UHGV virus genome: UHGV-1376702 | Source of the DNA: a virus | Strand: one strand, 5' to 3' | Length of the DNA stretch: 44,254 nt | Shown: positions 1-44,254 of the stretch, one piece after another | Layout: the number at the start of each line of letters is the position of its first letter | How positions within the stretch are numbered: the first letter of the stretch is position 1 | Notes under the pieces: model-generated | Database searches by the model: none | What the model saw: the letters and a program-made list of their open reading frames with translations, nothing else | Told to the model about the DNA's origin: nothing | Program-made: the position numbers and the translations under genes

Positions 1-273
1 ATGGATGGGAAGGACGTAGACACCCAGAAACTCATCGGTGAGTCCGTGATGGGTATGAGTGCCATTGGCGGTGTATCCTTACTACAGGATATCTTCCTGG
101 GGGATTCTCCCCGTCACTCATTGGCATCTATGGGTTACGTCACAGGACTACTTGGGGCTGTGCAGGACCTGGCTACCGGTAATATGGATATCAAGACCTT
201 CACTAAGCAGGTGCCGTTAATCCAGGAATTCGCACCTACGCGAGCTATCATCAATAACTTCGGAGACGATTAA
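1..273 (+). CDS. C-terminal fragment of large internal virion (ejection) protein; 5'-truncated by window start
   Basis: ORF is open from base 1 and is in phase with the ORF that runs off the 3' end (40829..44254 is 3426 nt, a multiple of 3), as expected if the sequence is a circular permutation. Confidence 0.5.
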   Translation: MDGKDVDTQKLIGESVMGMSAIGGVSLLQDIFLGDSPRHSLASMGYVTGLLGAVQDLATGNMDIKTFTKQVPLIQEFAPTRAIINNFGDD

Positions 274-274
274 T

Positions 275-1231
275 ATGGCATACAGCTGGCAAGAACAAAT
301 CAAGCCAGCTGGTACCCAGGATATCCAGTGCGATATTGAATATTTGGACAAGTCCTATATTCATGTATACCTAGACGGTGTGGAAACCACTGGGTACACC
401 TGGACCAGCTCTACTAATATCAGGCTTAATTCGGCCTTAGCGGCAAGCACTACTGTGCTACTAATCCGTAAGACAGAGCGAGAGTATCTGTACATTGAGT
501 TCGCCAGTGGTTCTCCGTTCATTGAGGTAAACGTAGACTCCCAAAACACGCAGTTCCTGCACCTTGCGCAGGAACTAGTGGAGGGCCGGGCTATACCCGG
601 ATTCTATGGCGCTATCAGCATGAACGGGTACCGGATAACCAACTTAGCCAACCCAATCAGTGCCCAAGATGCCGCCACTAAGGCTTATGTAGATGCCGCC
701 GATGCCTTACTAGGACAGCGCATTGACGCAGAGCATTCGGGGTGGGTATCCGCTGTACAGGCCGAAGCCGTTACACGGAAGGCAGCAGATGACGCGCTGA
801 GTGCCCGTACCTCCGCCTTGGAGAACACCTTTATAAGCGGTGTAGAGACGGTAAGCTACCCGTGGAGCACGGTCCTGGCCACTGATACGGACGAAGTAAC
901 TCCAGGCTTAGCCTTCACTAAGGCTGTAGTAGAGGTTAACGGGGTTGGGCAGATTCGTGGCTACAGTTTCGATATTGTAGATAATACCATACTGTTTGCA
1001 GAGACCTTACCTGCGGGCACTATTGTAGCCGCTCGGCTGGGGGTTGATGTAACTGCGGGGGACGGTTTTGCTACGCAAGCATCCCTAGATTACTTAGCCG
1101 ACTCTTTGGGAGATTTGGCGTATCTGGACAAGGCTGCAGCTGTATCCAACGCAACCGGCACCGGGGATGTAGTGGCTAAATTTAACGCACTGCTGGCAGC
1201 GCTACGCACCAGTGGGGTGCTGTCTACATGA
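275..1231 (+). CDS. tail fibre / tailspike adaptor protein (T7 gp17 N-terminal-domain-like)
   Basis: 318 aa; RBS GGAGA upstream; N-terminal region and the segment GRAIPGFYGAISMNGYRITNLANPISAQDAATKAYVD resemble the tail-attachment domain of T7-type fibres; lies between internal virion protein and terminase as in T7-like genomes. Confidence 0.6.
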   Translation: MAYSWQEQIKPAGTQDIQCDIEYLDKSYIHVYLDGVETTGYTWTSSTNIRLNSALAASTTVLLIRKTEREYLYIEFASGSPFIEVNVDSQNTQFLHLAQELVEGRAIPGFYGAISMNGYRITNLANPISAQDAATKAYVDAADALLGQRIDAEHSGWVSAVQAEAVTRKAADDALSARTSALENTFISGVETVSYPWSTVLATDTDEVTPGLAFTKAVVEVNGVGQIRGYSFDIVDNTILFAETLPAGTIVAARLGVDVTAGDGFATQASLDYLADSLGDLAYLDKAAAVSNATGTGDVVAKFNALLAALRTSGVLST

Positions 1232-5210: not shown

Positions 5211-7166
5211 ATGGCGTTAATTAGATTAGTAGCTCCAGAGCGGGTATTCTCCGACTTGGCGAGCATGGTAGCATATCCAAACTTTCAGGTACAGGACAAG
5301 ATTATCCTGCTGGGCAGCGCCGGTGGGGACTTCACCTTTACTACTGCTGCGTCGGTAGTGGATAACGGAACTGTGTTTGCTGTACCCGGTGGGTATCTGC
5401 TTCGTAAATTCGCGGGCCCGGCATACAGCTCCTGGTTCAGCAATTGGGCGGGCATAGTCACGTTCATGAGTGCACCTAATAGGCACCTGGTTGTGGACAC
5501 AGTCTTGCAGGCCACGAGTGTGCTCAACATCAAAAGCAACTCTACGCTAGAGTTTACTGACACCGGAAGAATCCTGCCGGATGCTGCGGTTGCACGTCAG
5601 GTGCTTAACATTATCGGCTCGGCACCATCGGCGTTCGTGCCGTTAGCAGCGGATGCCGCAGCGGGCAGCAAAGTCATTACGGTGGCTGCCGGGGCTTTGT
5701 CTGCGGTAAAAGGTACGTACTTGTATCTTCGCTCTAACAAGCTGTGCGACGGTGGGCCTAACACGTACGGTGTAAAGATTTCCCAGATTAGGAAAGTGGT
5801 GGGAGTCAGCACCTCCGGTGGCGTCACCAGTATTCGGCTGGATAAAGCGCTGCACTATAACTACTACCTGTCTGATGCCGCGGAAGTAGGCGTCCCTACA
5901 ATGGTAGAGAACGTAACCCTAGTATCTCCGTACATCAACGAGTTCGGCTACGACGACTTGAACCGGTTCTTTACTATCGGTATCTCTGCCAACTTTGCCG
6001 CGGACTTGCACATCCAGGACGGGGTTATTATTGGCAACAAACGCCCCGGGGCTTCTGATATAGAAGGGCGTAGTGCTATCAAGTTCAATAACTGCGTAGA
6101 TAGTACCGTTAAGGGTACGTACTTCTACAACATCGGATGGTATGGGGTAGAGGTGCTCGGCTGCTCAGAGGACACGGAAGTACACGATATCCACGCCATG
6201 GACGTACGCCACGCAATCTCTCTGAACTGGCAGAGCACTGCAGACGGGGACAAGTGGGGAGAGCCTATCGAGTTCTTAGGCGTTAACTGCGAAGCCTACA
6301 ACACAACCCAAGCTGGGTTTGATACTCATGACATTGGTAAGCGTGTGAAGTTCGTTCGATGCGTTTCGTACGACAGTGCTGACGATGGGTTCCAAGCGCG
6401 CACTAACGGGGTAGAGTACTTGAACTGTCGAGTTTACCGTGCAGCTATGGACGGGTTCGCCTCCAACACCGGTGTAGCCTTCCCTATCTATAGGGAGTGC
6501 CTAGCTTATGACAACGTACGCTCTGGCTTTAACTGCTCGTACGGCGGTGGCTACGTTTATGACTGCGAGGCTCACGGTAGCCAGAATGGTGTGCGAATCA
6601 ACGGGGGCCGTGTTAAGGGTGGTCGGTACACCCGCAACTCCAGCTCTCACATCTTCGTTACTAAGGACGTAGCTGAGACAGCGCAGACACCCCTGGAGAT
6701 TGATGGCGTGAGCATGCGCTACGACGGTACCGGGAGAGCTGTGTACTTCCACGGGACTATGGGCATTGACCCTACCCTGGTATCTATGTCCAATAACGAC
6801 ATGACCGGTCACGGCTTGTTCTGGGCATTGCTGAGCGGCTACACCGTTCAACCTACGCCTCCGCGCATGTCCATGAACTTACTGGATGACACAGGTATCC
6901 GTGGAGTGGCAACTCTGGTGGCTGGTGAGGCTACAGTCAACGCCCGTGTACGCGGAAACTTTGGCAGCGTAGCTAACTCCTTCAAGTGGGTGTCTGAGGT
7001 TAAGTTGACGCGGTTGACCTTTCCCTCTAGTGCTGGGGCCTTGACGGTTACTGGCGTAGCTCAGAACCAGGATGTGCCTACACCTAATCCGGACCTAAAC
7101 AGCTTCGTGATTAGGAGCAGTAACGCAGCGGACGTATCCCAGGTAGCCTGGGAGGTGTATCTCTAA
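5211..7166 (+). CDS. tailspike / probable polysaccharide depolymerase (beta-helix)
   Basis: 651 aa; start directly follows the endolysin stop; Gly/Asn/Val/Thr-rich sequence with repetitive short beta-strand pattern (e.g. NCVDSTVKGTYFYNIGWYGVEV) typical of right-handed beta-helix tailspikes; last structural-type gene before the non-coding terminus. Confidence 0.6.
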   Translation: MALIRLVAPERVFSDLASMVAYPNFQVQDKIILLGSAGGDFTFTTAASVVDNGTVFAVPGGYLLRKFAGPAYSSWFSNWAGIVTFMSAPNRHLVVDTVLQATSVLNIKSNSTLEFTDTGRILPDAAVARQVLNIIGSAPSAFVPLAADAAAGSKVITVAAGALSAVKGTYLYLRSNKLCDGGPNTYGVKISQIRKVVGVSTSGGVTSIRLDKALHYNYYLSDAAEVGVPTMVENVTLVSPYINEFGYDDLNRFFTIGISANFAADLHIQDGVIIGNKRPGASDIEGRSAIKFNNCVDSTVKGTYFYNIGWYGVEVLGCSEDTEVHDIHAMDVRHAISLNWQSTADGDKWGEPIEFLGVNCEAYNTTQAGFDTHDIGKRVKFVRCVSYDSADDGFQARTNGVEYLNCRVYRAAMDGFASNTGVAFPIYRECLAYDNVRSGFNCSYGGGYVYDCEAHGSQNGVRINGGRVKGGRYTRNSSSHIFVTKDVAETAQTPLEIDGVSMRYDGTGRAVYFHGTMGIDPTLVSMSNNDMTGHGLFWALLSGYTVQPTPPRMSMNLLDDTGIRGVATLVAGEATVNARVRGNFGSVANSFKWVSEVKLTRLTFPSSAGALTVTGVAQNQDVPTPNPDLNSFVIRSSNAADVSQVAWEVYL

Positions 7167-7261: not shown

Positions 7262-7723
7262 ATGTCTATGAACATCAAATATGACACAACATCCCCTAGC
7301 TGCTTGGTGTGGCTCAAGGGTAGGCGCGCCGGTGCTCCAGCGGGTACCCGCAACACTCGTGGCTACTGGGTGGTACAGGTATCTGGTAGAAAGATACAGG
7401 CACACCGCCTCATCTGGGAACTACACAACGGGCCTATTCCAGACGGATATGTGGTGGACCACATCAACCAAAACCCCAGTGACAACAGATTAGAGAACCT
7501 GCGCTTAGCTACGGTTAGCGAAAACAACTGTAACGCACGCAGGTCTAAGCGGGAACATCCTAGGGGTGTATACTACACTGGCACCTGCTGGCGCGGGGAG
7601 TTCTGGAAGGACGGTAAGCGTTACATGAAGAAGCACAGCTCCTACGAAGTTATCTGCAAGTGGGTACTAGAGAAACGTCAAGAGCAACACAAGGCCTTCA
7701 CCCCGGGGCATGTGTATACCTGA
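7262..7723 (+). CDS. HNH homing endonuclease
   Basis: 153 aa; HRLIWELHNGPIPDGYVVDHINQNPSDNRLENLRLAT matches the HNH_3-type motif of free-standing phage homing endonucleases; RBS AATGAGGA. Confidence 0.8.
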   Translation: MSMNIKYDTTSPSCLVWLKGRRAGAPAGTRNTRGYWVVQVSGRKIQAHRLIWELHNGPIPDGYVVDHINQNPSDNRLENLRLATVSENNCNARRSKREHPRGVYYTGTCWRGEFWKDGKRYMKKHSSYEVICKWVLEKRQEQHKAFTPGHVYT

Positions 7724-7810
7724 AACCAAAAATTATTATACTCACCCTTGGGCCTCCCTCACCCTCAACGCGCCCAATTGCCCCCATAGGGGGTGCCTAG
7801 CGTCAATTTA

Positions 7811-7821
7811 GGGGGGGGGGG
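7811..7821. repeat. G11 homopolymer tract
   Basis: Eleven consecutive G in the non-coding region. Confidence 0.9.
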
Positions 7822-7928
7822 CACTGGTGGGGCCTGCTAGTGCGCACTAGAGCGCCTCAGCGGGCCTGTGCTGCGCTCTAAGGCTATTGCCAGTGCTACC
7901 CTATGGCTATCACTGTGCGTTCACTAGG

Positions 7929-7972
7929 GCGCTTCCTGTGCGCTTCCTGTGCGCTTCCTGTGCGCTTCCTGT
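7929..7972. repeat. tandem direct repeat, 4 x 11 bp (GCGCTTCCTGT)
   Basis: Four perfect head-to-tail copies read directly from the sequence. Confidence 0.9.
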
Positions 7973-8240
7973 GGGCCATAGGGGCGTGCTCTGCCTTGCT
8001 TATTTTGTGCGCCTCAGTGGGCCTGCCTAGTGCCTGTCTAGTGCCTGCGCAGTGGGGCCATAGGGTATGCCTAGTGCTATCCCTAGTGTGCACTAGGCTA
8101 TCCACTGGCTATCCTTAGTGCTTTACATTGTGCTAATTATGTGCTACGCTGCGCGCTCCCCACTAGGGCGCACATCCACCACACCGCACTATCCAGCGCT
8201 ATCCCTTTGCTCTTACTTTCATTCGAAAGCTATTATGAAA

Positions 8241-8260
8241 TGATGTTACAGGAGTAGGAG
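8241..8260 (+). promoter_or_regulatory. conserved motif copy 1 (ATGTTACAGGAGTAGGAG); candidate phage-RNAP promoter
   Basis: One of three identical copies of a 17-19-nt sequence (others at about 29667 and 41572); this copy is intergenic near the putative genome left end. Confidence 0.35.
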
Positions 8261-8527
8261 GGTTTTAGGGCACTATATACACTACTTAATACTAGTCCTT
8301 ACTAGTCCCTACTAGGCACTCACTAGTATGGCCCTGTGCCTACGTAGTAGGCTGCCATAACTACATAGTCACCGCATCACTACGTTCCTTCACTTACGTT
8401 ACGTCACTACGTTCTGCTTTATGTAGTATTAGATAGTATTGGCTAGACGTGGCTAGTATTGGCTACAGCCAGTGTCAGCACAGTGCTATCCCTAGTGGCT
8501 ATCCCTATAATATATAAGGAGTTATAC

Positions 8528-9082
8528 ATGTTACCATCTAGTCGGGCTACGGCTAAAGCCACTGGTAGTACATACTACTACACAGGGAAGCACTGTAAGT
8601 ACCAGCACACGGCAAAGCGCCTCACCAGTTCAGGGGAGTGCTCCGAGTGCTTTAAGATTAGGAGTACCAGCCCAGCTACTAAGGAGCGTATGCGGGAGTA
8701 CCATAAGGTTTATCAGGTACGTAAGGCAGAGGCCTTGAGAGAGTACCGTAAGACACGCCGACCTAAGCACATTATGACAGAGGAGCAATTACAGCGTAAG
8801 GTTCGCCACAATGCGCGATACCGTGCTGCGCGTACTCAATCCGTACCCTCATGGTATGGCGAGTGGGATGAGTTTGTTATGTTGGAGGCTATCGCTTTAG
8901 CAGCCGAGAGGGCGGAGTGTACTGGCATAGCGTGGCATATTGACCATATGCTACCGCTAAAGGCTAAAGAGGTGTGCGGCTTACACTGTGCGGGGAACAT
9001 TCAGGTGATACCCGCAACGCTTAATACACATAAGTGTAACAGGCTGCTATTCACGGAGCCGTTGGAGTGGCTAAAGGCATAA
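8528..9082 (+). CDS. HNH endonuclease with N-terminal zinc ribbon
   Basis: Start refined to ATG 8528 (RBS AAGGAG, TATAAT just upstream); Cys-x-x-Cys pairs near the N-terminus; C-terminal HNH motif AWHIDHMLPLKAKEVCGLHCAGNIQVIPATLNTHKCN. Confidence 0.7.
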   Translation: MLPSSRATAKATGSTYYYTGKHCKYQHTAKRLTSSGECSECFKIRSTSPATKERMREYHKVYQVRKAEALREYRKTRRPKHIMTEEQLQRKVRHNARYRAARTQSVPSWYGEWDEFVMLEAIALAAERAECTGIAWHIDHMLPLKAKEVCGLHCAGNIQVIPATLNTHKCNRLLFTEPLEWLKA

Positions 9083-9088
9083 ACTTGA

Positions 9089-9127
9089 GGTAATACAGTA
9101 CTATAAATGCTGTATTACCTTTTTTTA
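9089..9127 (+). terminator. rho-independent terminator
   Basis: Perfect 10-bp stem GGTAATACAG / CTGTATTACC with an 11-nt loop followed by T7, directly after the HNH gene stop. Confidence 0.6.
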
Positions 9128-9263
9128 TAAAAAGTGCTTGCTTTTTTAAATCTGCTAGGTGTATATTTATCCCATCGAAAGCGATACGGTCTACCGGGTA
9201 GCTCTAGATTCCAGAGTCAACTGGATAAGTAGACAGCCTGATAAGTCATATGAAAAACAGGTA

Positions 9264-9292
9264 TTGACAATAGCAGTAAACGCTTTTATAGT
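9264..9292 (+). promoter_or_regulatory. sigma70-type promoter (TTGACA-N17-TATAGT)
   Basis: Perfect -35 hexamer, 17-bp spacer, 5/6 match at -10; predicted start near 9299-9300. A weaker candidate (TTGCTT-N18-TATATT) lies at about 9138-9167. Confidence 0.6.
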
Positions 9293-9541
9293 TTGAACCA
9301 TGTTGCGGAGCAGTGTAGCGCCTAAAGGTGCTCTGACCACTAACCCTAGATACATGATAGTAGTAAGCGTGCCGGACGTTATCACCGGGGTTCTGAGACA
9401 AACCACACTGTCGAGGCGAGAGCAGCTCGCTCCTCTGAATCGAGGGAACAAGGCGCGGAGAGTATCCCGCAAAGAGCATATAACATAGCGTAGCAGTAAC
9501 AAGGCTGCGCTAGATTATGTTCTCTGAGAGGTAAGAAGATT

Positions 9542-9739
9542 ATGCGCAAAGCAAAGCGTTTAGCTTTACGGCGGAATATGCAGTTATCACTGAATCCCAC
9601 CGACAACGTGCCACTCACTGTGAAGCCAAGTAAACAAGGCCTGAGCTGTGAGCACAGGGTGAGAGGTAAGCAAAAGCAACGTGCTGGCAGTAAACAACCT
9701 TCGGGGTGGTCTACTATGAATGCACAGTTCGGACACTAA
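9542..9739 (+). CDS. small basic protein (hypothetical)
   Basis: 65-aa ORF with RBS GAGAGGTAAG 5-9 nt upstream; very Lys/Arg-rich; coding status uncertain. Confidence 0.3.
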   Translation: MRKAKRLALRRNMQLSLNPTDNVPLTVKPSKQGLSCEHRVRGKQKQRAGSKQPSGWSTMNAQFGH

Positions 9740-9743
9740 TTAC

Positions 9744-9775
9744 AGCCTATAGCATCCTATGGGGTGCTATGTGAA
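9744..9775 (+). promoter_or_regulatory. conserved hairpin element, copy A
   Basis: AGCCTAT + 7-bp stem (AGCATCC/GGGTGCT, one G-U) with 4-nt loop + ATGTGAA; about 40 nt upstream of the start at 9815; second copy at 10533. Confidence 0.4.
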
Positions 9776-34469: not shown

Positions 34470-34474
34470 TACGC

Positions 34475-34512
34475 GCCCCTGGTGCCTTCGGGTGCCAGGG
34501 GCTTTTTTTTTG
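34475..34512 (+). terminator. strong rho-independent terminator (UUCG tetraloop hairpin + U9)
   Basis: CCCCTGGTGCC-TTCG-GGTGCCAGGGG (11-bp stem with two G-U pairs) followed by nine T; analogous in position to T7 T-phi after the capsid gene. Confidence 0.75.
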
Positions 34513-34556
34513 TCCCTGTCTTAAGGGTCCAAGGGGTCTTTAATAGAGGAACAAAT

Positions 34557-35117
34557 ATGAGAGAATTAGACGCTGTGAACCTGACGCTGGAAGCCCTGGG
34601 GGAGTCCCGCGTTATGGACATCAACACCAGCAACCCAAGCGCTGGGTTAGCTCGCTCTGCGCTTGCGCGCAATCGGCGCGGGCTGCTCAGCACAGGGTTC
34701 TGGTTTAACGTGGTCGAGCGTGAAGTTGCCCCTACTGCTGACGGCTTTATTAAAGTGCCGTGGAACCAACTGGCCGTGTACGATGCTGGCTCTGACTCCA
34801 AATACGGGGTCCGTGATGGGAACCTGTACGACCTTATGGAGCAGAACCAGTACTTCGACAGCTCCGTTAAGCTCAAAATAGTCCTGGACTTGGACTTTGA
34901 GGACCTGCCGGAGCATGCGGCTATGTGGGTGGCTAACTACACCACTGCACAGGTGTATCTAAACGACCTGGGCGGCGACAGTAACTACGCTAATTACGCA
35001 CAGGAAGCTGAGCGCTACAAGAGCATGGTGCTGCGTGAGCATCTGCGCAACCAGAGATTCAGCACCAGCAAGACCCGCTTTGCTCGTAGAATCCGCCGCG
35101 CTCGTTTTATGGTTTAA
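34557..35117 (+). CDS. tail tubular protein A (T7 gp11-like)
   Basis: Start refined to ATG 34557 (RBS AGAGGA); the track's 5' extension from 34482 runs through the terminator hairpin. About 186 aa; N-terminus parallels T7 gp11. Confidence 0.75.
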   Translation: MRELDAVNLTLEALGESRVMDINTSNPSAGLARSALARNRRGLLSTGFWFNVVEREVAPTADGFIKVPWNQLAVYDAGSDSKYGVRDGNLYDLMEQNQYFDSSVKLKIVLDLDFEDLPEHAAMWVANYTTAQVYLNDLGGDSNYANYAQEAERYKSMVLREHLRNQRFSTSKTRFARRIRRARFMV

Positions 35118-35126
35118 GGAGAGGTT

Positions 35127-37487
35127 ATGGCGCGATCATTAGAAGGTACTATTCAGAGCTTGCTGCAGGGCGTTTCCCAGCAGGTTCCGAGAGAGCGCCA
35201 ACCAGGACAACTGGGGGCGCAGCTGAACATGCTCAGCGACCCGGTTTCCGGTATCCGCCGCAGACCCCCGGGTGAGATTGTCTGGGAAAGCACGATTGAT
35301 AATCCAGGGCTTGATTCCCTGTTCACTGAATACGTAGAGCGTGGAACTGACGGCAGGCACCTGCTGATTAACACCAGCAACGGTAACTGGTGGTTACTGG
35401 CTAAGAATGGAAAGACCATCCTTAACTCCGGAAAAGACCCGTACTTTATTACCACCGTGGGTCAGACCTCTTTGCAGACCGCGAGTATTGCTGGACTGAC
35501 TTATATCCTGAATACGGAGATGGCCCCGAACACAACCGTGGACAATACGGGGCGTATTGACCCAGGCACCACTGGGTTCTTCTACGTTAAATCTGCAGCA
35601 TTCCAGAAACGCTGGAACATCACTGTTACATCTGCCGGGGTAGATTACTCCGGGGACTACACCGCCCCAGCTGCTGGCAGTACCAGTGGTAACGCTGAGG
35701 AGGTATCAGGTGCCTACGTTGCTCAGCAGCTGCGAGACTCTCTTGTAGCGAATGGATTGCCAGCTGGGAACGTTAGCGTACGCGGCGCATACTTGTTCTT
35801 CTATGGGTTGAGCAACTGTGTGGTATCCTCCGACGCTGGCGATACTTATGCTGGGGTATCCAACCAGTCTCGTGTAGACCAGGAGCAGGACCTACCTGCA
35901 CAGCTCCCAGCGCAAGCTGACGGGGCGATGTGTCGTGTAGGTGCAGCCTCGTCTGAGACAGCGTGGTACCAGTTCAGCTACAGCACCCGCACCTGGTCTG
36001 AGGTGGGAGCGTACGGCAGCATCACCAAGATTACGAACATGCCCCGAGAGCTTGCTGCAGATGACAACATTATTGCGCGGGATTGGGAGGGGCGTTTAGC
36101 TGGTAACGACGACAATAACAGCGACCCCGGATTCGTGGAGAATGGATACATCACCGGCATTGCAGCTTTCCAGGGCCGCTTGGTTCTGCTTAGTGGTAGC
36201 TCCGTGGATATGTCTGCCTCAGGTCTGTACCAGCGCTTCTACCGCTCCACTGTGACGTCTCTGCTGGATACGGACCGTATCAGCATTAGCTCTGCGTCTG
36301 CACAGGATTCTGTGTATCGTACCGCTGTGCAGTTCAACCGGGACTTGGTCCTGTTTGCTAACAGCATGCAGGCGGTTGTGCCGGGTTCAGCGGTACTCAC
36401 CCCCACTAACGCAAGTATTAGCATCACCAGCACCTACGAGTGTGATAGCCGTGTGACTCCGGTAATGGCGGGGCAGACGGTAATCTACCCGAATAAGCGC
36501 AACAACAACTACGCGGGTATACTGGAGCTAATCCCATCACCTTACACCGCGGCACAGTACACTACACAGGATGCCACGGTGCACCTACCCCGGTATATCC
36601 CAGGCAGGGTATTGCAGATGCAAAACTCCAGTGTCACCAATATGGCCTTCTCGCGCATGTCTGGAGAGCGTAATAGCCTGCTGGTCTATGAGTTTATGTG
36701 GGGTGGGAGTGATGGTGCTAAGATGCAAGCGTCGTGGCATAAATGGACGTTCCCATATCCAATCCTGAGCGTGCAGGCGCTGGAGGATGAGGTGTTCTTG
36801 TATATACAAGGGCCCAGTCCCAGCAACAAGCTTTTGATTGTGTCTATGGACCCGCGTGAAGGTTATCAGCTGGGTTCGGAGTACCGCGAAGCCTACTCGG
36901 ATTTGCAGAAGCAAGTTCAAGTGCAGGATGGGGTGTTTACTGTTCCGGCGGTACTGCGCCCCGTCGGGTGGGCTGACCGTTACAAGGAAGAGCTTATCTT
37001 AACGTACCTACCCAGCAACCCTATGGGGCCTACTGAGGTTGGCATCAAGGAGATTGCCGGGGAGAACACCCTACGGGTTGTGCGCGGCGTACCTGATGGC
37101 ACTTATGTAATCGGGAGACGTTACCGTAGTACGTTCACGCTAACTACGCCTATTCTACGGGACCAGAATGACAAGCTCGTGGGGAGTGGACATGTGCGCC
37201 TGCTGCGTCTGGACGTGGCAGTACGTAACTCTGGGCACTTCGATGTACAGGTACTAGACACCCCTCGGGACGTCAATTGGGGTGGGGAGCTAACTGGTAT
37301 CCTGATGAACTCAAAGGAGCTGACGCTTGGGCAGGCCCTGCGTATGGACCTGGCTACGATTACCGTGCCATGTCGTACCAACGCAGACACAACCGAGGTG
37401 TCACTATTTACTGACGGTTCTATGGAACTGAACGTGTTGGATATATCGTACATCCTGCGCTACAACCAACGCAGACGGAGGATTTAA
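35127..37487 (+). CDS. tail tubular protein B (T7 gp12-like)
   Basis: 786 aa; size and position after tail tube A match gp12-type nozzle protein. Confidence 0.8.
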   Translation: MARSLEGTIQSLLQGVSQQVPRERQPGQLGAQLNMLSDPVSGIRRRPPGEIVWESTIDNPGLDSLFTEYVERGTDGRHLLINTSNGNWWLLAKNGKTILNSGKDPYFITTVGQTSLQTASIAGLTYILNTEMAPNTTVDNTGRIDPGTTGFFYVKSAAFQKRWNITVTSAGVDYSGDYTAPAAGSTSGNAEEVSGAYVAQQLRDSLVANGLPAGNVSVRGAYLFFYGLSNCVVSSDAGDTYAGVSNQSRVDQEQDLPAQLPAQADGAMCRVGAASSETAWYQFSYSTRTWSEVGAYGSITKITNMPRELAADDNIIARDWEGRLAGNDDNNSDPGFVENGYITGIAAFQGRLVLLSGSSVDMSASGLYQRFYRSTVTSLLDTDRISISSASAQDSVYRTAVQFNRDLVLFANSMQAVVPGSAVLTPTNASISITSTYECDSRVTPVMAGQTVIYPNKRNNNYAGILELIPSPYTAAQYTTQDATVHLPRYIPGRVLQMQNSSVTNMAFSRMSGERNSLLVYEFMWGGSDGAKMQASWHKWTFPYPILSVQALEDEVFLYIQGPSPSNKLLIVSMDPREGYQLGSEYREAYSDLQKQVQVQDGVFTVPAVLRPVGWADRYKEELILTYLPSNPMGPTEVGIKEIAGENTLRVVRGVPDGTYVIGRRYRSTFTLTTPILRDQNDKLVGSGHVRLLRLDVAVRNSGHFDVQVLDTPRDVNWGGELTGILMNSKELTLGQALRMDLATITVPCRTNADTTEVSLFTDGSMELNVLDISYILRYNQRRRRI

Positions 37488-37488
37488 T

Positions 37489-38076
37489 ATGTGGTGGATG
37501 GTTGCGGCCATGGCCGCTAAGACCGTTCTGGGGCAGGGTGCTCAGATTGAAGTGTCCAAGGCCAGGAACAAGGCTGTGATTCAACAGACAGCCAAACAGC
37601 TAAACGACATCGCGCTACAGCGCGCCCAGTCCAGGGACCGGACTGAGGTGTCTCTGTTTAACATTCAGCAGCAGAAGCTGCAAGCACAGAGCCAAGTGGG
37701 ACTACAAGCAGCAGCCTCCGGTACTATGGGGGCCTCTGTTAAAGACGCCGTAGCCACAGTGAACACTGTAGCCGGGCGACAAGAGGCCAGCGTACGTGAC
37801 CAGCAGGCAACTCAGGAAGAGGGTTTCCGTCTAATGACGGACAAGGCCGTGGACAGCGGCCTGGCTAACATGGACATGGAGGACCCCTACGATAACATGT
37901 TTAACTCATTGCTGAGTGTTGGGGCATCTGCCGTTGGACAGTACGCTGGTAACGCTGCGTCGTCTACTGACTCTGGTAGCTCAACACCCGGAAGTGGTGC
38001 AGCGGCTACTCAGAACATGGCGTCCTCCTATGATTTATGGGGGAGCAAAGGTAACAGCTCAGTTCATACGTGGTAA
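37489..38076 (+). CDS. internal virion protein (gp14-like)
   Basis: 195 aa; hydrophobic N-terminus (MWWMVAAMAAKTVL); first of three consecutive internal-core genes. Confidence 0.6.
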   Translation: MWWMVAAMAAKTVLGQGAQIEVSKARNKAVIQQTAKQLNDIALQRAQSRDRTEVSLFNIQQQKLQAQSQVGLQAAASGTMGASVKDAVATVNTVAGRQEASVRDQQATQEEGFRLMTDKAVDSGLANMDMEDPYDNMFNSLLSVGASAVGQYAGNAASSTDSGSSTPGSGAAATQNMASSYDLWGSKGNSSVHTW

Positions 38077-38093
38077 CTTAAGAGGAATGTCAA

Positions 38094-40778
38094 ATGCCTG
38101 TGATTCAACCCAGTAGACAGGGGTTAAATATCGGAGGAGTGCAACTGCAGTCCAACGATGTTAGCTTACCGTCAACGGTAAGTGAGGTGTCTGTTGATAC
38201 CTCCAAAGCAAAACGCCTAGCTGCCCTGTCAGGGTTCGTGCAGGACTTCGGCGTAGGGTTTGACGAAGCAGTAAAAGAAAACGCTGCAGCCGCCACGGTG
38301 CGCGGCGCAATGGATGCCCAGGGCGCAGTAGATGCAATGGCTTCCAAAGATGAGGCTGTACAGAAGCAGAACATCTTCGTACGCGAGGCCTATCAGGATG
38401 GCTACGTATCCGCCGCTGCATACGACTCTCTAGCCAAATGGCGCACGGATAGCATCGCACGAGCTAAGAAAGCTGCTGAGTCTGGTCTGACTGACGAGGA
38501 GTTCCAGCAGCAAGAGCAAGAGCACGTACAGTCAATGGCAGACAAGCTCGGGATGTATCTCCCGGACATGTCCAAACAGTCTGCCACGAATATACTGCAG
38601 CAGCTCCGTGCTACGAGCATGGCGAACTATACAGCCTTCCAGAAAGGGCGCGCGGCGTTTGCCGTGGCTCAGGCTGACCGCGCACTTGACCGTGGCCTCA
38701 GCTCGTCCAGTGATGAGTTCTATCAGCGTCTACAGGCAGGACAGGGTGCCGCCGCGCAGATGTCTATCAAGACCGGCTTAGACAGCATCCTGGCTGCTGA
38801 GCACCTGGACAAGAGCAAGAAGCTGGACCGGGCCAAGCAGTATCTGGTCAGCGTAGCGCAGCAGACTCAGGACCCGCTGGTAATCAACCAGCTGCAAGGA
38901 CTGGCTACCAAGGAACTCGGGGTTAACTCAGTGGACGTCAACGCGGCTCTGTATCAGGAGTTCAAGCGCGCTGGTGCTCAGATTGAGACGCAGGCCCGTT
39001 TTGAAATCTCTGACACAATCTCTTCCTTAGAGGGGCAGACTCCTGAGCAGCAGGAACAGACTATGGCGCGCATTCGTAGTCGTGTCATTGAGCTGTCGGC
39101 ATCGGACGTGCTCAGCGCTGGAACCAGCATGGAGTTCTGGAACAAGGCCCAGACCATTCGTGAGAAGGCAGCGGACACCCAGGCATTGCGCACAGCGATT
39201 ACTGGGAACATGCCAAGCTCCACCCTGGCGGGGATGTACAAGGGGGACCTGGGTAAGGCTCGCAGCGAGCTGCTCAAGAGCTTTCCGGATACCCCGGAAG
39301 GGAACCTGCAGCTGCTGGCATACGGAAGCAACAGCAAGGATGCGTGGGCCGTCAACGAGGCGCACAAGCGTATGTCTTCGGACATGGCACGTACACTGAC
39401 TACGCTGGACCAGCTCGGTGAGGACGGTGAGGTTTCCCGTGAGAACGTCAGCAGCATCAACTTGTGGGCACAGGCTTATAGTACCAGTACGGACTTAGGT
39501 AAGATGGCGCTGCTGTCTGAGGTACCGTCTGAGTGGCAGGGGGTGGTGCAGAAAGCTATCGCACAAAACCCGAGCAATGCCAGCGATACTATTTTGGATG
39601 ACCTGCGCCGCCAGGCACGTAACAAGGCCAGTGGGCGCTACAGCAATATCCAGAGTAACCCAACTGACAAGATGGTGGACCCTAGTGGCACCAGCAACTG
39701 GTTCAGTTTCTTCGGTGATGCCGACGCTCAGCGCCAGGAAGCGCGCGCTGCTATGGAAGAGGAGTATCGTTATACGTACAGCCGCAATCCGGAATCTCTG
39801 GTAGGTAAGGATGCTGAGGACATCAACACGATGCTCAAAGGCAACATCCAAGCCCGTAAGCTGGAGCTGGAGATTGCAGGCACACCGAGGCACGTGTATC
39901 TGCCTGCAGGTACCTCTCTGCAGTCTATCATGGGCGACTACAAGGGCGACCAGGAGCAGTTCAAGGCTACTCTGCAACAGCAGATTCAAAACCAAGTCCA
40001 GGCCATCACCGACCCCAGCAACATGGAACGTGTAGTGGTGCAGGCTGCCACAGCAGGCAACGCGGGTCAGAACATGACCGTAACCGTGTTCGACAAGAAG
40101 GGCACATTCCAGACTATGTCTGTGAACCTCCGTGACGTTCAGGCTACTGCGCAGGCTGCGTACGATTCGGCACTGGCTGGGGATATGAAGATTGGCAGCG
40201 AGCAAGTGGGCGTACGTCCTGCCACCTTCTACGACCACGACAATGGGCGCGCTGTCAGCGTACAGGTCAACGGTCGTAACGCGGTGGGGCTGGAACCATC
40301 GCTGTTTAGTGACATCCTCGCCACCACTATGAAGTTCGAAGGGTTCCGAGAAGGCAAGGGCAGGGGTAGCGTAGGCTTCGGTCTGCACGTTAACTCGGGC
40401 ATGCCTGTCCCTCAGAAAGTAACCATTGACGACGGTATCAGTATCCTTAAATCCTCTATGGAGAGGCAGTACGTTCCGAACGTGCAGAAGCAACTCAAGG
40501 GGCAGGGTTTGAATGCCTCCGATGAGGCGTTAAAGGTTATGGTGGACCTGAACTATCACGGTGGTAACGGTAGCTCTGGTCCTGTAGCAGAGGCGATGGC
40601 ACAGGTACGTAAGGCTGCCAAGTCCCCGGTGGGGGCGTATCAGTATCCTGTATCTGAGGCCCAGGGTAGGGCTTGGCAAGCGCTGAGGAATACCCCGGCG
40701 TACAAGCAGGCCCAACCTGAGCGTAAGAAGTACCTGGAACAAAACCTACGTGATTGGCTCTTTGAGGCAACACACTAA
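38094..40778 (+). CDS. internal virion protein with C-terminal lysozyme-like domain (gp15-like)
   Basis: 894 aa; helical Gln/Ala-rich body; C-terminal segment MKFEGFREGKGRGSVGFGLHV resembles a lysozyme-type E...G..G.G core (inference). Confidence 0.65.
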   Translation: MPVIQPSRQGLNIGGVQLQSNDVSLPSTVSEVSVDTSKAKRLAALSGFVQDFGVGFDEAVKENAAAATVRGAMDAQGAVDAMASKDEAVQKQNIFVREAYQDGYVSAAAYDSLAKWRTDSIARAKKAAESGLTDEEFQQQEQEHVQSMADKLGMYLPDMSKQSATNILQQLRATSMANYTAFQKGRAAFAVAQADRALDRGLSSSSDEFYQRLQAGQGAAAQMSIKTGLDSILAAEHLDKSKKLDRAKQYLVSVAQQTQDPLVINQLQGLATKELGVNSVDVNAALYQEFKRAGAQIETQARFEISDTISSLEGQTPEQQEQTMARIRSRVIELSASDVLSAGTSMEFWNKAQTIREKAADTQALRTAITGNMPSSTLAGMYKGDLGKARSELLKSFPDTPEGNLQLLAYGSNSKDAWAVNEAHKRMSSDMARTLTTLDQLGEDGEVSRENVSSINLWAQAYSTSTDLGKMALLSEVPSEWQGVVQKAIAQNPSNASDTILDDLRRQARNKASGRYSNIQSNPTDKMVDPSGTSNWFSFFGDADAQRQEARAAMEEEYRYTYSRNPESLVGKDAEDINTMLKGNIQARKLELEIAGTPRHVYLPAGTSLQSIMGDYKGDQEQFKATLQQQIQNQVQAITDPSNMERVVVQAATAGNAGQNMTVTVFDKKGTFQTMSVNLRDVQATAQAAYDSALAGDMKIGSEQVGVRPATFYDHDNGRAVSVQVNGRNAVGLEPSLFSDILATTMKFEGFREGKGRGSVGFGLHVNSGMPVPQKVTIDDGISILKSSMERQYVPNVQKQLKGQGLNASDEALKVMVDLNYHGGNGSSGPVAEAMAQVRKAAKSPVGAYQYPVSEAQGRAWQALRNTPAYKQAQPERKKYLEQNLRDWLFEATH

Positions 40779-40828: not shown

Positions 40829-43800
40829 ATGGCTCAGTTTCTGAACCAAGAACCGAATCCACAGGAAAAGGATTCTGCTAAGGGCGCAACACTTAAACCT
40901 GCGCCTGAGCGCGTAGATTGGAACGATGCCGGAGACAACGGCTTAAACGCACTGGAGCGTGCCTCCTTACTGGCGCAGGCCAAGACCCCAGCTACTACAG
41001 CCGGGGAGAGCTTTGCGTCTGGTATGGGTAACAGCATCATCGCCGCAGCTATCCGTAAGGCCTCTGCCCCGGCATTTGACCGGGACCAGAACTTTAACGC
41101 CAAGCAGACTCTGAGCAGCGATACCAGGGCTAAGCTGTATGCTCCGAATCAGGAAGAGATTGAGTACCTGCACGACTCTGTATCGGTCGAGGATTACAAC
41201 TACCGCATGCAGCAGATGCTTGAGCAACGCAACCGTGACCGCTTAATGGCTGACAACACGGTAGCCGGGTTCGCGGGTATGTTGGTGGGTGATTCTCCGT
41301 TCATCCTGGCCCCGATGTCTGCCGCTGGTATTGCTGGCCGCGCAGGCTTAGCTGCACGGACTGCTATCCGCGCTGCTGACGTAGGCTCCGCATTCTATGC
41401 GCAGGACCAACTGGGCCAGTCTGCTGCGGTAACTGCACTGGTAGCGGGCGTAGCTGGGTTGGACCAGCTCTGGGATATGTCTAGGGCTGCTAAAGCTGCT
41501 GCTAAGGCTCGTACTGGGCGTGAGCCTATGTTCGACCCAGAAGCGCCTACAACTCGTACAGCGAGGGACGCTAATGTTACAGGAGTAGGAGAGGGAGAGG
41601 AAATTCTCACTAAGACACTGGGTGAAAGCATCCAAGTATCGAGAAACAATACCGCCTCCGTGAACATGAAAGCACAGCACGTAGTTCAGTTCTTGAAGAA
41701 GTCTGAGCACTTGACAGCAGGACAGAAGGCTATTCTGGACACGCTGGGCGATGCTGTAAATGACATTGATTTTAAACTGGTAGCAGGCTCCGCAAACCGT
41801 AGCCGCTACACTTACGCACAACAAGATTTAGCTAAGCGTGGAGAGATATCCCTGCGCGCGCCTAAGCAAGCTAACGGCAGCACCTGGACTACAGTCGGTG
41901 ATGCGCTGCGCGCTATGGATGCAGATACAAGCAAGGTGGCCGTGCACGAACTGATTCATGCCGCTACTGCGCGCGCCATTGACAGTAATCCCGAGATTGC
42001 TAAACGCCTGGAGGAAGTGCGCGCTGTTATTGCAGCTGACTCCACCCTGACACCGCGTATGCGGTATTACGCAAGTAATGTGCATGAGATGCTGGCAGGT
42101 TTAGGCGACAGCCCTGAGTGGGTTGAGCACCTGGCACGTACGCAGTCTCCCACCGGTAAGAGCATGCTCCGCCAACTGGGTGAGTACATCATGAATGCCT
42201 TGGGCATCAAAGCCAAGGGCTCTGCCTTGGAGGATGTCCTGGATGCGTATGAGGACGCAGTTAAGTGGACCGCTAAGGATTATGCAGACCAAGCCCAGAG
42301 CTTCCGTAGCGAAGCCTTCCAGGACCTGGCGGGCAGCACCACCCTCAATGAGGCTAAGAGCGCCCAAGCTATGCTGGACGGCGCCAAGAAGAAGCTCTCC
42401 ACTATGTTTGCCCTGTACGATAATATCGCTCAAGGCAACGAAGACTTGGCTAAACTGCTAGTGTCGGATGCGTCCGCAGTAGGCGGCCGTCGCCCGTCAG
42501 TGGTAGACTACAAGCGTAACCTCACTTTGGAGATGGATGCTCGCGCCAGCGTAGTGGAAGATGCTATCCTGGGTGCGTTGAAGGATAAGGGTGTAGGGGT
42601 GCTCTCACGCTTCTTCCATCGTAGTAATTTCCGCGCTGAGCGGGCTGCGCTGGAAGACCGCCTGAGTAAGTACCTGGATGCTGCCTACAGCGCTGACGTA
42701 AACGGTCGCGCTGTTCCGGTACCGGATGCAGAGATTGCTCCGCTGGTTGATGCCTATCATCGCTCTGGCTGGGCTAGCAAGTGGCATGATCACATGACCG
42801 CTGCTGGCTTGGTGGATGATGGTGCGTTGGTTAAATCCGACTACTACTTCCCGCGCCAGTACAGCTACGACAAGATGCGCCAAGGTATCGCACAGGGTAA
42901 CACTCTGGATGACTACCGCGCCCTGTTCCGGTCCGCCCTGCGGGACGTGTACCCGAGCATGGAGTCAGAGGTAGTGCAGCGTGTTGCTAAGGAGATGGTT
43001 GACGGTATCTACAACGGCCGTGCTGGGCAGTCTGGTCCTATGTGGAAGCAGCTGATTAACGGTATGGGTAACGACGAGGTCGTTATGGCTATGCGTAGCG
43101 CTGGTGTAGAAGAGTCTGCAATCCAGAGCTTCCTGGCTGGTAACGTACGAGAATCCGGCAGCACATCCCCTGCGCGGAACCTGCGTCAGCGTACTCGGTT
43201 CAACATGGACAAAGAGTACCTGATTAACGGAAAGAGCATGCGCATGCAGGACCTGATGGATACTGACGTAGCCAAGGTTATGCACGGGTACACTAACCGT
43301 ATGTCTGGACGTGTAGGCATGGCCTATGCAGGCGTACAGGACCTGGGGCAGCTCGCTAAGATGATTGATGAGTCTAAGCACGCACTGGCGGATTCCGCTA
43401 AGTGGGAGAAGACCGTTAATGACACCATCGACTTTATCCTGGGCGGGGCACCTGCTGACGCCGGGCAGCTTCCGGACTTGCTGCGAGCAGCTGGGAACAT
43501 GGCTAACGCTACCATGCTTAAGAACTCCGGCCTGTATCAGCTGACTGATACTGCTCTGGCTATGAAGGAGTTCGGTATGGCTAGAGTGCTGCGCAGTATG
43601 CGTGACCAGCCTTGGTTCAAGGAAGGTGCCGTAGCTATCAATACTCCGGATATGGCTGCCCGTCTAGACACCGTGCTGCGAGGCAATATCCAGAAGGAGA
43701 TGCGATTCCGCTGGCTGAATACATACGCTGACGATAACCTGGACCTGACCCGTCAGGCCTCCTGGTTCAACGTCACTCAGAACGTCGGGCAGGCTGCACG

Positions 43801-44254
43801 CCACGTCAACGGCATGAGTATGGTGCACCGGCTGCAGGTTAACCTGAACTCCGGTATTGTGGCGGATGAGCTTACGCAGATGTTCAAGGGCGACGCTGAG
43901 GCGTTTAAGCGTCTGGAGCGTTTTGGGCTTACCCGCGAAATTGCAGACCGTGCTATCGCTGCCAACAAGGCTAACCCTGGCACTATGTTCCAGCCGGACC
44001 TGCAGATGCAAGTTGAGGTTGTAGGTACGCGTATGATGGACTACCTTGTACAGCAGATTCGTACTGGAGAGACCTCGCACTTTGCACAGTTCAATCCTAT
44101 CGGCAAAGTCATTGTAGGGTACCAGAGCTTCGCACTGGCTGCCACTAACAAGATTCTGCGTAGAGAGTTGAACGATGCTGGGTGGATTGGTGTGGCCCAC
44201 ATTATGGCGTACCAGTTCCCGTTGATGCTGCTGGCTACTATGGCTAAGCACAGC
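40829..44254 (+). CDS. large internal virion / ejection protein (gp16-like), 3'-truncated by window end
   Basis: ATG 40829 after RBS AGGAGA; ORF stays open for 1142 codons to the end of the window; together with 1..273 it would give about 1232 aa, typical of T7 gp16-class proteins. Confidence 0.7.
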   Translation, partial: MAQFLNQEPNPQEKDSAKGATLKPAPERVDWNDAGDNGLNALERASLLAQAKTPATTAGESFASGMGNSIIAAAIRKASAPAFDRDQNFNAKQTLSSDTRAKLYAPNQEEIEYLHDSVSVEDYNYRMQQMLEQRNRDRLMADNTVAGFAGMLVGDSPFILAPMSAAGIAGRAGLAARTAIRAADVGSAFYAQDQLGQSAAVTALVAGVAGLDQLWDMSRAAKAAAKARTGREPMFDPEAPTTRTARDANVTGVGEGEEILTKTLGESIQVSRNNTASVNMKAQHVVQFLKKSEHLTAGQKAILDTLGDAVNDIDFKLVAGSANRSRYTYAQQDLAKRGEISLRAPKQANGSTWTTVGDALRAMDADTSKVAVHELIHAATARAIDSNPEIAKRLEEVRAVIAADSTLTPRMRYYASNVHEMLAGLGDSPEWVEHLARTQSPTGKSMLRQLGEYIMNALGIKAKGSALEDVLDAYEDAVKWTAKDYADQAQSFRSEAFQDLAGSTTLNEAKSAQAMLDGAKKKLSTMFALYDNIAQGNEDLAKLLVSDASAVGGRRPSVVDYKRNLTLEMDARASVVEDAILGALKDKGVGVLSRFFHRSNFRAERAALEDRLSKYLDAAYSADVNGRAVPVPDAEIAPLVDAYHRSGWASKWHDHMTAAGLVDDGALVKSDYYFPRQYSYDKMRQGIAQGNTLDDYRALFRSALRDVYPSMESEVVQRVAKEMVDGIYNGRAGQSGPMWKQLINGMGNDEVVMAMRSAGVEESAIQSFLAGNVRESGSTSPARNLRQRTRFNMDKEYLINGKSMRMQDLMDTDVAKVMHGYTNRMSGRVGMAYAGVQDLGQLAKMIDESKHALADSAKWEKTVNDTIDFILGGAPADAGQLPDLLRAAGNMANATMLKNSGLYQLTDTALAMKEFGMARVLRSMRDQPWFKEGAVAINTPDMAARLDTVLRGNIQKEMRFRWLNTYADDNLDLTRQASWFNVTQNVGQAARHVNGMSMVHRLQVNLNSGIVADELTQMFKGDAEAFKRLERFGLTREIADRAIAANKANPGTMFQPDLQMQVEVVGTRMMDYLVQQIRTGETSHFAQFNPIGKVIVGYQSFALAATNKILRRELNDAGWIGVAHIMAYQFPLMLLATMAKHS
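41572..41591 (+). promoter_or_regulatory. conserved motif copy 3 (TAATGTTACAGGAGTAGGAG); candidate phage-RNAP promoter
   Basis: Identical core inside the gp16-like ORF; in T7, late promoters also lie inside upstream structural genes. Confidence 0.3.

Follow-up and report, generated by a model that had tools for sequence, protein, structure and literature searches.

RESULTS

One gene spans both edges of the window

The stretch of DNA analysed here (the window; 44,254 nt, UHGV virus genome UHGV-1376702) ends within one open reading frame and begins within another, which raises the question of whether it holds a whole phage genome and, if so, where the ends of the packaged DNA lie. A preliminary description had proposed that the two frames are in phase, that the genome is complete, T7-like and circularly permuted, with all modules present once, and that its physical ends lie near 7.8-8.5 kb. 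We find that the window contains, in a single copy, the complete genome of a Klebsiella podophage of the KP34-like (Drulisvirus) group (Table 1) and that the record was opened at an arbitrary point inside the ejection-protein gene, an ordinary record-keeping artefact rather than new biology.

The frame that runs into the right edge comprises 3426 nt, or 1142 codons, without a stop (by our own arithmetic, a chance of (61/64)^1142, about 1e-24), and its start codon at 40829 is the first ATG past a stop, with GGAG 8 nt upstream. Joining the end of the window to its start gave, as proposed, a single open reading frame of 1232 codons, with no frame break or internal stop and its sole stop at the terminus; base 1 of the window falls at the in-frame Met1143. 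In five reference Drulisvirus genomes with annotation (NTUH-K2044-K1-1, hereafter K2044, KpV71, KP-Rio/2015, KP34, and fHe-Kpn01) and in two close relatives (RCIP0044 and RCIP0106), the homologous gene measures 3699 nt, enough for 1232 aa and a stop codon. In the two homologues aligned, those of K2044 and KpV71, the joined protein matched with 0 gaps and 89% identity, and 600 nt spanning the junction aligned over 600/600 positions, again with 0 gaps.

Identity of only 63-70% just past the junction against K2044, KpV71, and KP-Rio had prompted the idea of a chimeric join at the edge. This was ruled out, since in 100-nt bins on either side of the junction identity continues at 88-97% against KP34, fHe-Kpn01, and an IMG/VR contig; the drop against the other three is a local mosaic patch. 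Moreover, the exact 32-nt junction sequence lies in the interior of an independent 43.6-kb IMG/VR contig. No assembler-type overlap links the two ends of the window: prefix and suffix were not identical at any length tested from 10 to 399 nt.

The joined protein has the hallmarks of a gp16-type protein: it is the largest of three consecutive internal virion proteins (195, 894, and 1232 aa, in gene order) and is homologous to a tetrameric ejection protein, matching PDB 8vb2 ("tetrameric ejection protein gp48") nearly over its full length (residues 36-1223 versus 30-1252, E 7.9e-91). A second near full-length match was to PDB 23sg_S (E 0). The former is gp48 of Pectobacterium phage ΦM1, a functional equivalent of T7 gp16 that forms a tetramer stacked on an octameric ejection protein inside the capsid (PMC11440229); ΦM1 belongs to another genus and infects another host, and the window protein is likened to it by sequence. 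The internal virion and capsid proteins were identified through PHROGs and PDB sequence searches: Pfam gave no family for the capsid protein, none at E ≤ 0.01 for the 1232-aa and 894-aa internal proteins, and no N-terminal lytic transglycosylase domain of the T7 gp16 type in the window counterpart, whose alignment to phrog_342 begins at profile position 180.

Table 1 Features of the window and the evidence for them
Feature	Position	Strand	Evidence or remark
Ejection protein, final 90 codons and TAA, same gene as 40829..44254	1..273	+	gapless alignment across junction to 1232-aa homologues
Tail fibre/adaptor protein, T7 tail-fibre N-terminal domain	275..1231	+	PF03906, E 6.3e-20
Small terminase subunit, T7-type (T7 gp18-type)	1244-1546	+	PF11123 DNA_Packaging_2, E 1.7e-19
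Large terminase subunit, T7-type	1546-3402	+	PF22530 Terminase-T7_RNaseH-like, E 1.3e-30
Spanin	3970-4374	+	PHROGs (cassette: phrog_1804, phrog_20, phrog_7)
Holin	4367-4618	+	PHROGs (same cassette)
Endolysin	4602-5210	+	PHROGs (same cassette)
Tailspike, K1 capsule-specific polysaccharide lyase, last structural gene before right end	5211..7166	+	Pfam K1-lyase_N, Rider, and C domains
HNH endonuclease, last gene before terminal repeat	7262..7723	+	phrog_99, E 6.5e-47
Terminal-repeat sequence, single copy, predicted 235 bp, boundaries ±2 nt	7757..7991	.	homology to relatives' repeats, conserved boundaries
Non-coding leader, terminal repeat to first early gene, dense short tandem repeats (period 10-14 nt)	7992..8527	.	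homologous to non-coding region after left repeat in KpV71 and K2044
Early and DNA-metabolism region	8528..27051	+	peptidase to nucleotide kinase, plus four paralogous HNH genes
Peptidase	13215-14261	+	early/DNA-metabolism region
Primase	14891-15676	+	early/DNA-metabolism region
Helicase	16302-17588	+	early/DNA-metabolism region
DNA polymerase	18211-20610	+	early/DNA-metabolism region
Phosphoesterase	21417-22397	+	early/DNA-metabolism region
Exonuclease	24705-25673	+	early/DNA-metabolism region
Endonuclease VII	26255-26677	+	early/DNA-metabolism region
Nucleotide kinase	26674-27051	+	early/DNA-metabolism region
Single-subunit RNA polymerase, just ahead of structural genes	27193..29661	+	PF00940, E 2.4e-92; PF14700
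Portal	30396-31991	+	structural block 30396..40778
Scaffold	32006-32848	+	structural block
Major capsid	32874-33893	+	structural block
Tail tube A	34482-35117	+	ORF listed from a GTG; homologues 561 nt
Tail tube B	35127-37487	+	structural block
Internal virion protein A	37489-38076	+	structural block
Internal virion protein B	38094-40778	+	structural block
Internal virion (ejection) protein, first 1142 codons, T7 gp16 counterpart, cut by window edge	40829..44254	+	phrog_342 "internal virion protein", E 5.7e-242

The rotated window is collinear with reference genomes

Completeness was borne out when the window was rotated to start at 7757: it is then collinear end to end with the five reference genomes, all alignment blocks lying on the plus strand, and its bases 1 to 44489 align with K2044 and KpV71 from the first base of each to the last. 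Length and content match those of the relatives, whose genomes measure 42.2-45.2 kb. The 52 genes cover about 94% of the sequence, a self-comparison of the window found no internal DNA duplication, and each core function is present once, in line with the preliminary description, the only paralogues being HNH endonucleases. A tRNA scan of the window returned none.

Individual genes follow the same pattern. The RNA polymerase (822 aa, 2469 nt) has the same length in KP34, K2044, and KpV71, and its gene falls 44-49% of the way along the genome when counted from the predicted left end; the HNH gene that precedes the terminal repeat has an equivalent in the same position in KpV71 and K2044. The true start of tail tube A is probably an internal ATG, given the length of its homologues. 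The tailspike is 97.7% identical at the amino acid level to ORF34 of K2044.

Conserved boundaries place the predicted ends at 7757 and 7991

Terminal repeats are annotated in KpV71 (246 bp), KP34 (216 bp), and fHe-Kpn01 (222 bp), and we detected one of 234 bp in K2044, where the record does not annotate it. Each of the four maps once in the window, to 7757-7991, between the last gene and the early leader, where the sequence is arranged like a concatemer junction. Both boundaries are conserved in all four phages, the left one as ...GGGCCTC/CCTCACCCT... and the right one as ...GCTC/TGCCTTGCTTATTTTG (slashes mark the boundary). At least 12 related phage records start or end exactly at the equivalents of 7757 or 7991, and several of these annotate a "concatemer junction" or terminal repeat. 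In fHe-Kpn01, blunt ends and 222-bp repeats were established by restriction mapping, ligation followed by Sanger sequencing, and PhageTerm; a third read-start peak in that phage marks a nick, not an end (PMC7291057). KP-Rio/2015 proved of little use as a boundary reference, its record being offset and its "direct repeat" annotations marking sub-repeats.

By homology (78-90% identity within the repeat), the phage in the window is thus predicted to have blunt ends at 7757 and 7991. These positions sit at the left margin of the stretch, rich in repeats, where the ends had been anticipated; 10 of the 22 Tandem Repeats Finder (TRF) rows indeed fall within 7837-8485, which makes up 1.5% of the window. 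A second copy of the terminal repeat was not found in the window, where only chance matches of 14-17 nt occur. Because the window holds the repeat once, virion DNA should be about 235 bp longer than the window, for a predicted total of 44,489 bp. The exact figure of 235 bp is itself a prediction, uncertain by a few nucleotides, since the deposited boundaries of relatives differ by 1-2 nt per end and their repeat lengths vary.

Fixed ends might alternatively lie in the same non-coding region at positions other than exactly 7757 and 7991, with a shorter or longer repeat that reaches, for instance, into the arrays at 7992-8130. The spread of repeat lengths among relatives (from 216 bp to the aligned span of up to 266 bp in SAA231) and of their deposited boundaries would allow this, as would the perfect array of 4 x 11 nt at 7929-7973, an expansion particular to this phage that, like the G11 run also found in the repeat, is prone to assembly error. 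We nevertheless consider such a shift improbable, as conservation extends to the sequences at both boundaries, which align with those mapped by experiment in fHe-Kpn01.

It is tempting to speculate, and we do so only tentatively, that elements conserved around the repeat in this phage are the cis-acting signals, as yet undefined in Drulisvirus, that direct terminase cutting and duplication of the repeat, and that the phage represents a previously undescribed species of the genus (it is at most 86% similar to the seven genomes compared). Candidate elements are the CCCCCATAGGGGG hairpin, which is invariant and lies 25 nt from the left end; the motif GGGCCATAGGGG, on the inner side of the right boundary at a distance of about 10 nt; and tandem arrays of 10-14 nt found immediately within the left repeat. 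A sigma-70 promoter scan of 7150-9800 returned 3 sites versus 3.2 expected from shuffles and hence lends no support to placing early promoters there. As a separate observation, TTGACA-17-TATAGT at 9264-9292 is a good sigma-70 match.

Permutation is probably a property of the record

In T7, terminase cleaves concatemeric DNA at the edges of the repeat, which is duplicated by DNA synthesis during packaging. The window has the structure of one monomer of a replicative concatemer, in which a single repeat copy separates the last gene from the early leader. By analogy with T7, the T7-type terminase may cut such concatemers at both edges of the repeat, and a second repeat copy may arise through DNA synthesis during packaging. 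Virion DNA would then start at 7757, run through 44254 and on to 1, and end at 7991, with 7757-7991 present at both ends. Short-read assembly would collapse the two copies, and the genome would therefore circularize, so that it may be opened at any point. Hence, we are highly confident that the window is a complete, arbitrarily opened genome unit of a lytic Drulisvirus whose virion DNA is linear and non-permuted, with a predicted 235-bp direct terminal repeat. "Circularly permuted" accordingly holds for the sequence record; it would not describe the virion DNA, as the genus has fixed blunt ends and a short direct terminal repeat (PMC7291057). Permutation is thus probably a property of the record, not of the virus.

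Headful (pac-type) packaging, which would yield circularly permuted, terminally redundant virion DNA without fixed ends, is compatible with the perfect circle into which the window closes, and collapsed short repeats are indistinguishable from headful redundancy by sequence alone. It is nonetheless very unlikely: the terminase matches the T7 family rather than a headful type, congeners have fixed blunt ends with exact repeats of 216-246 bp (one set mapped experimentally), the window preserves the repeat together with the sequences that bound it, and these two positions are where 12 independent records end. We give hardly any credence to the window edges being real physical ends, or to sequence missing or duplicated at the break; the linear form of the record and an ATG at the window start that could mimic a gene start speak for this and nothing further, while the break falls inside an essential gene that is intact and equally long in seven relatives, alignments cross it without gaps, and length and content fit the relatives. 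Equally hard to credit is that the sequence represents a genuinely circular replicon or else an integrated element (prophage or plasmid-prophage), a reading that has circular closure and nothing else in its favor, against the lack of any integrase, repressor, or partition family match among the genes scanned (40/52), the lack of tRNA genes, the placement of all genes on one strand in standard Autographiviridae order, and close relatives that are all isolated lytic Klebsiella phages.

The value of locating these ends is practical rather than conceptual, and current understanding stands unchallenged. As deposited, the record splits an essential gene and omits one repeat copy, so that automated annotation would call two partial proteins and understate the genome by 235 bp; re-opening it at 7757 and appending 7757-7991 gives a form that makes biological sense and can be compared with KP34, KpV71, and fHe-Kpn01. 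Because its K1 capsule lyase is almost the same as that of K2044, the phage bears on phage research into hypervirulent K1 Klebsiella pneumoniae.

Relation to T7 and placement in Drulisvirus

Features common to T7 and the window are the single-subunit RNA polymerase, small and large terminase subunits of T7 type, a short direct terminal repeat (predicted in the window) with short repeat arrays adjoining, and three internal core proteins in a row with the tail fibre gene after them. The T7 features used in this comparison are reportedly those of Dunn and Studier (1983). Unlike in T7, where it lies near the left end, the RNA polymerase gene of the window is mid-genome, and the lysis cassette differs; the megablast and blastn matches listed included no T7 record. 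"T7-like" is thus apt at the family level only, where the phage, like Autographiviridae, encodes a single-subunit RNA polymerase of its own, a terminase of T7 type, a portal, tail tubes A and B, and three internal core proteins. In the strict sense it is KP34-like, with a spanin-holin-endolysin cassette and the RNA polymerase gene mid-genome rather than early near the left end as in Studiervirinae.

The phage belongs to the genus Drulisvirus (Slopekvirinae, Autographiviridae). Genome-wide similarity to the seven compared genomes is 75-86% (75.5% to the type phage KP34, and 81-86% to K2044, KpV71, and RCIP0044/0106), above the genus line, now at 70%, and below the species line of 95%; the founding members of the genus ("Kp34likevirus") are 75-79% similar to KP34 (PMC4411677). 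Gene content and order on one strand are conserved across five members from first to last base, and the order spanin, holin, endolysin found in the window is, with a unimolecular spanin, a lysis-cassette trait of the genus (PMC4411677). The same description names conserved recognition and specificity loops of the RNA polymerase as a further trait; for the polymerase in the window, the analysis covered Pfam domains and length. Matches comprised hundreds of Klebsiella Drulisvirus records at 90-96% identity.

RCIP0044, RCIP0106, and KpV71 are the closest whole genomes compared (85-86% similar, with collinear gene order). All three share with the window an ejection protein of 1232 aa and a tailspike gene of 1956 nt (K1-lyase domains were searched for in the tailspike of the window only). 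The RCIP records were likewise opened arbitrarily, in the terminase gene, and carry the repeat internally, whereas the KpV71 record, unlike the window, carries both copies. Similarity to these three phages stays under the species line, and the repeat region is only about 82% identical. KP34 and fHe-Kpn01 have the same architecture, lysis cassette, and mid-genome RNA polymerase as the window, and their repeat boundaries align to 7757 and 7991, but they are only 75-76% similar to it, their tailspikes differ, and the window repeat is a predicted 235 bp with its perfect 4 x 11-nt array. Finally, the window carries additional HNH genes at 17787-18242 and 25824-26273, along with other short stretches, that are absent from the five references.

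The ejection-protein gene across the window edges

The preliminary description had proposed that a long gp16-like open reading frame (ORF), open to the last base of the window, continues in a shorter one that is open from its first base. Both ORFs have the lengths reported there, 3426 nt with 1142 sense codons and no stop, and 90 sense codons followed by TAA, and joining base 44254 to base 1 (the junction) gives one 1232-codon ORF with a single stop at its end. Its start is preceded in frame by a stop and lies 8 nt downstream of a GGAG ribosome-binding site; since a stop-free run of 1142 codons would arise by chance with a probability of ~1e-24 (our own arithmetic), the upstream ORF is real. 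The homologous gene measures 3699 nt (1232 aa plus stop) in the Klebsiella phages NTUH-K2044-K1-1 (K2044), KpV71, KP-Rio/2015 (KP-Rio), KP34, fHe-Kpn01, RCIP0044, and RCIP0106, and the joined protein is 89% identical to those of K2044 and KpV71, with gaps in none of the sequences. Around the junction, 600 of 600 nt centered on it align with 0 gaps to the K2044 and KpV71 genomes, and both flanks show 88-97% identity (100-nt bins) to KP34, fHe-Kpn01, and an IMG/VR contig. This 43.6-kb contig, from an unrelated sample, contains the exact 32-nt junction sequence and is contiguous for ~6.1 kb before and ~0.7 kb after it. A comparison of the end sequences revealed no overlap between the two window ends. 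Zero bases are lost or doubled at the edges. That the window edges are the real physical ends is very unlikely, being contradicted by the break itself, which lies inside a 1232-aa gene that is gapless across the junction. Bases 1-3 are an in-frame ATG (Met1143 of the protein), on which a random break is unlikely to fall, suggesting that software picked the opening point as an apparent ORF start.

The joined protein matches PHROG 342 (E 5.7e-242), the 1239-aa PDB chain 23sg_S (E 0), and ΦM1 gp48 (PDB 8VB2; E 7.9e-91, residues 36-1223). Given that ΦM1 gp48 and T7 gp16 are both tetrameric ejection proteins (PMC11440229), the label "gp16-like" is right in function and position. Pfam detected no transglycosylase domain in the 1232 aa. 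The first 200 nt of the window, encoding part of the C terminus, share 63-70% identity with K2044, KpV71, and KP-Rio and 89-95% with KP34 and fHe-Kpn01. A misjoin at the window edge was considered for this local drop and rejected, as the drop is confined to the first three phages; the stretch is a small mosaic patch in an otherwise conserved gene.

Predicted physical ends and packaging

Among the relatives, repeats are annotated in KpV71 (a long terminal repeat of 246 bp), KP34 (left and right direct repeats of 216 bp), and fHe-Kpn01 (direct repeats of 222 bp); K2044 has a 234-bp repeat without annotation. All four map to one window site, a 235-bp segment with conserved flanks at its left (...TTATACTCACCCTTGGGCCTC followed by CCTCACCCTCAACGCG) and right (...GGGCCATAGGGGCGTGCTC followed by TGCCTTGCTTATTTTG) boundaries. 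Restriction mapping, ligation with Sanger sequencing, and PhageTerm showed the fHe-Kpn01 ends to be blunt (PMC7291057); when aligned, these ends fall exactly on 7757 and 7991, and boundaries in other records are 1-2 nt off. When the segment alone was searched against phage records, 12 distinct phages (NTUH-K2044-K1-1, Kp_Pokalde_001, Ou2, Henu1_1, Henu1_2, AttikonH1, AttikonH1N2, KpV71, KpV475, SAA231, KpV74, and P6418) had a record terminating precisely on one of its two outermost bases, several of these records labeling it "short direct terminal repeat," "long terminal repeat; redundant region in virion DNA," or "concatemer junction." In most other records it is internal, as in the window; the RCIP series, for instance, is opened at the terminase gene. 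The window holds one copy and no second. On the basis of these alignments, virion DNA is predicted to run 7757→44254→1→7991 (44,254 + 235 = 44,489 bp).

True ends had been proposed as probably lying in the repeat-rich region near 7.8-8.5 kb, and the relatives' repeats predict them at its left edge. That region, 7837-8485, holds 10 of the window's 22 tandem-repeat rows in 1.5% of its length; one array lies in the terminal repeat, toward the right-hand boundary, and the others fill the early leader, so that the interval spans both. The T7 terminal repeat is reportedly adjoined by short-repeat arrays as well.

In the large terminase, Pfam detects the T7-terminase RNaseH-like domain (E 1.3e-30), while the small subunit matches the T7 gp18-type family (E 1.7e-19); together with the fixed blunt ends of the congener fHe-Kpn01, these matches point to T7-style packaging. 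By analogy with T7, a concatemer would hold a single repeat copy at each junction; cleavage at fixed positions and duplication of the repeat would leave a copy at both ends of each virion DNA. Short-read assembly collapses the two copies, and the resulting circle may be opened at any point. Headful packaging, in which virion DNA would be truly permuted, is very unlikely, being contradicted by the T7-type terminase, the fHe-Kpn01 ends, and the 12 records ending at repeat boundaries. The term "circularly permuted" holds for the deposited record; the virion DNA would be non-permuted.

Most collection Drulisvirus records (e.g., OR532838.1, OR532900.1, and MN116494.1) are likewise opened arbitrarily, with the repeat internal and unannotated, and some have ORFs over it labeled "hypothetical protein"; this artifact is widespread in the genus. 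Within the repeat, a hairpin 25 nt from the left end is invariant in 5/5 aligned phages. The G11 run, the genome's longest homopolymer (the sole other run of 8 or more is a T9), is G11-G14 in KpV71 and K2044, is interrupted in KP34 and fHe-Kpn01, and is likely a sequencing-error hotspot.

Coordinates of features in the window
Feature	Position	Remark
Ejection-protein gene, before junction	40829-44254	
Ejection-protein gene, after junction	1-273	
Tailspike, K1 capsule-specific lyase	5211-7166	Pfam K1-lyase N, Rider, C domains
HNH-type endonuclease genes (n=5)	15868-16305, 17787-18242, 20990-21424, 25824-26273, 7262-7723	
Predicted terminal repeat	7757-7991	235 bp
Hairpin CCCCC-ATA-GGGGG	7782-7794	
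G11 run	7811-7821	
Perfect 11-nt array	7929-7973	4.1 copies, GCGCTTCCTGT
Remaining arrays	8021-8485	periods 10-14 nt
Early leader	up to first early gene at 8528	536 nt, non-coding
First ORF past leader	8528-9082	184 aa
Terminator-like hairpin	9087-9121	strong
Putative sigma-70 promoter	9264-9292	near-consensus
32-nt motif (4 copies)	9744-9775, 10533-10564, 17592-17623, 43960-43991	1-3 mismatches
Extra stretch	34088-34461	
ORF in extra stretch	34122-34469	115 aa, TTG start
T9 run	34503-34511	

Genus and completeness

Megablast with three segments (~86% of the window, all but 34001-39999) gave hits to hundreds of Klebsiella phage records (90-96% identity), of which those with annotation are classed as Autographiviridae, Slopekvirinae, Drulisvirus. 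Over the whole genome, similarity is 75.5% with the type phage KP34 and 85-86% with KpV71, RCIP0044, and RCIP0106, the closest genomes compared, placing the window inside the genus and under the 95% species line, at least against the seven genomes compared; the phage adds at most one new member to a familiar genus. Of the published Drulisvirus traits (PMC4411677), the window shows the similarity, gene order, and spanin-holin-endolysin cassette.

Rotated to start at 7757, the window aligns end to end with K2044 and KpV71, the terminal bases of each genome included, and is collinear, on the + strand, with 5/5 annotated reference genomes; self-comparison detected no internal DNA duplication. Profile searches assigned one copy each of primase, DnaB-type helicase, family A DNA polymerase, 5'-3' exonuclease, endonuclease VII, and single-subunit RNA polymerase; portal, scaffold, and major capsid protein; tail tube proteins A and B, internal virion proteins of 195, 894, and 1232 aa, tail fibre/adaptor, and tailspike; small and large terminase; and the lysis cassette. 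No tRNA genes were found in the window, and the 40 genes scanned include no integrase or repressor family, which makes a circular replicon very unlikely. Single core functions and the lack of duplication and of such families support the claim of a complete genome with each module present once: the window represents one whole Drulisvirus genome, whose record is permuted and presumably has the terminal repeat collapsed. The situation is ordinary, and the preliminary finding was correct and well reasoned. "T7-like" applies at the family level; unlike in the narrow T7-like layout, the RNA polymerase gene lies mid-genome (44-49%), away from the left end.

The only paralogues are HNH endonucleases, four of the five being mutually related (30-43% aa identity). 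Two copies, one separating helicase from DNA polymerase (17.8 kb) and the other separating exonuclease from endonuclease VII (25.8 kb), fall in regions for which the five references show no match and therefore look like strain-specific homing-endonuclease insertions. The tailspike is 97.7% identical to K2044 ORF34, although the whole genomes are only 81% similar, which implies that the host has a K1 capsule and that the receptor-binding gene is exchanged as a module.

None of the five references has the extra stretch that separates tail tube protein A from a small ORF behind the capsid gene; its ORF has matches among PHROGs of unknown function, and RCIP0106 has an additional ORF at the corresponding position. 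For the first ORF past the early leader, the matching PHROG (E 3e-22) bears the annotation endonuclease VII; this ORF is followed by the terminator-like hairpin and then the putative sigma-70 promoter. A conserved 32-nt motif (core ...CCTA..GGG.GCTATGT...), one copy of which falls within the ejection-protein gene, is annotated as a phage promoter in KP-Rio; alternatively, it could mark single-strand nicks (PMC4411677).
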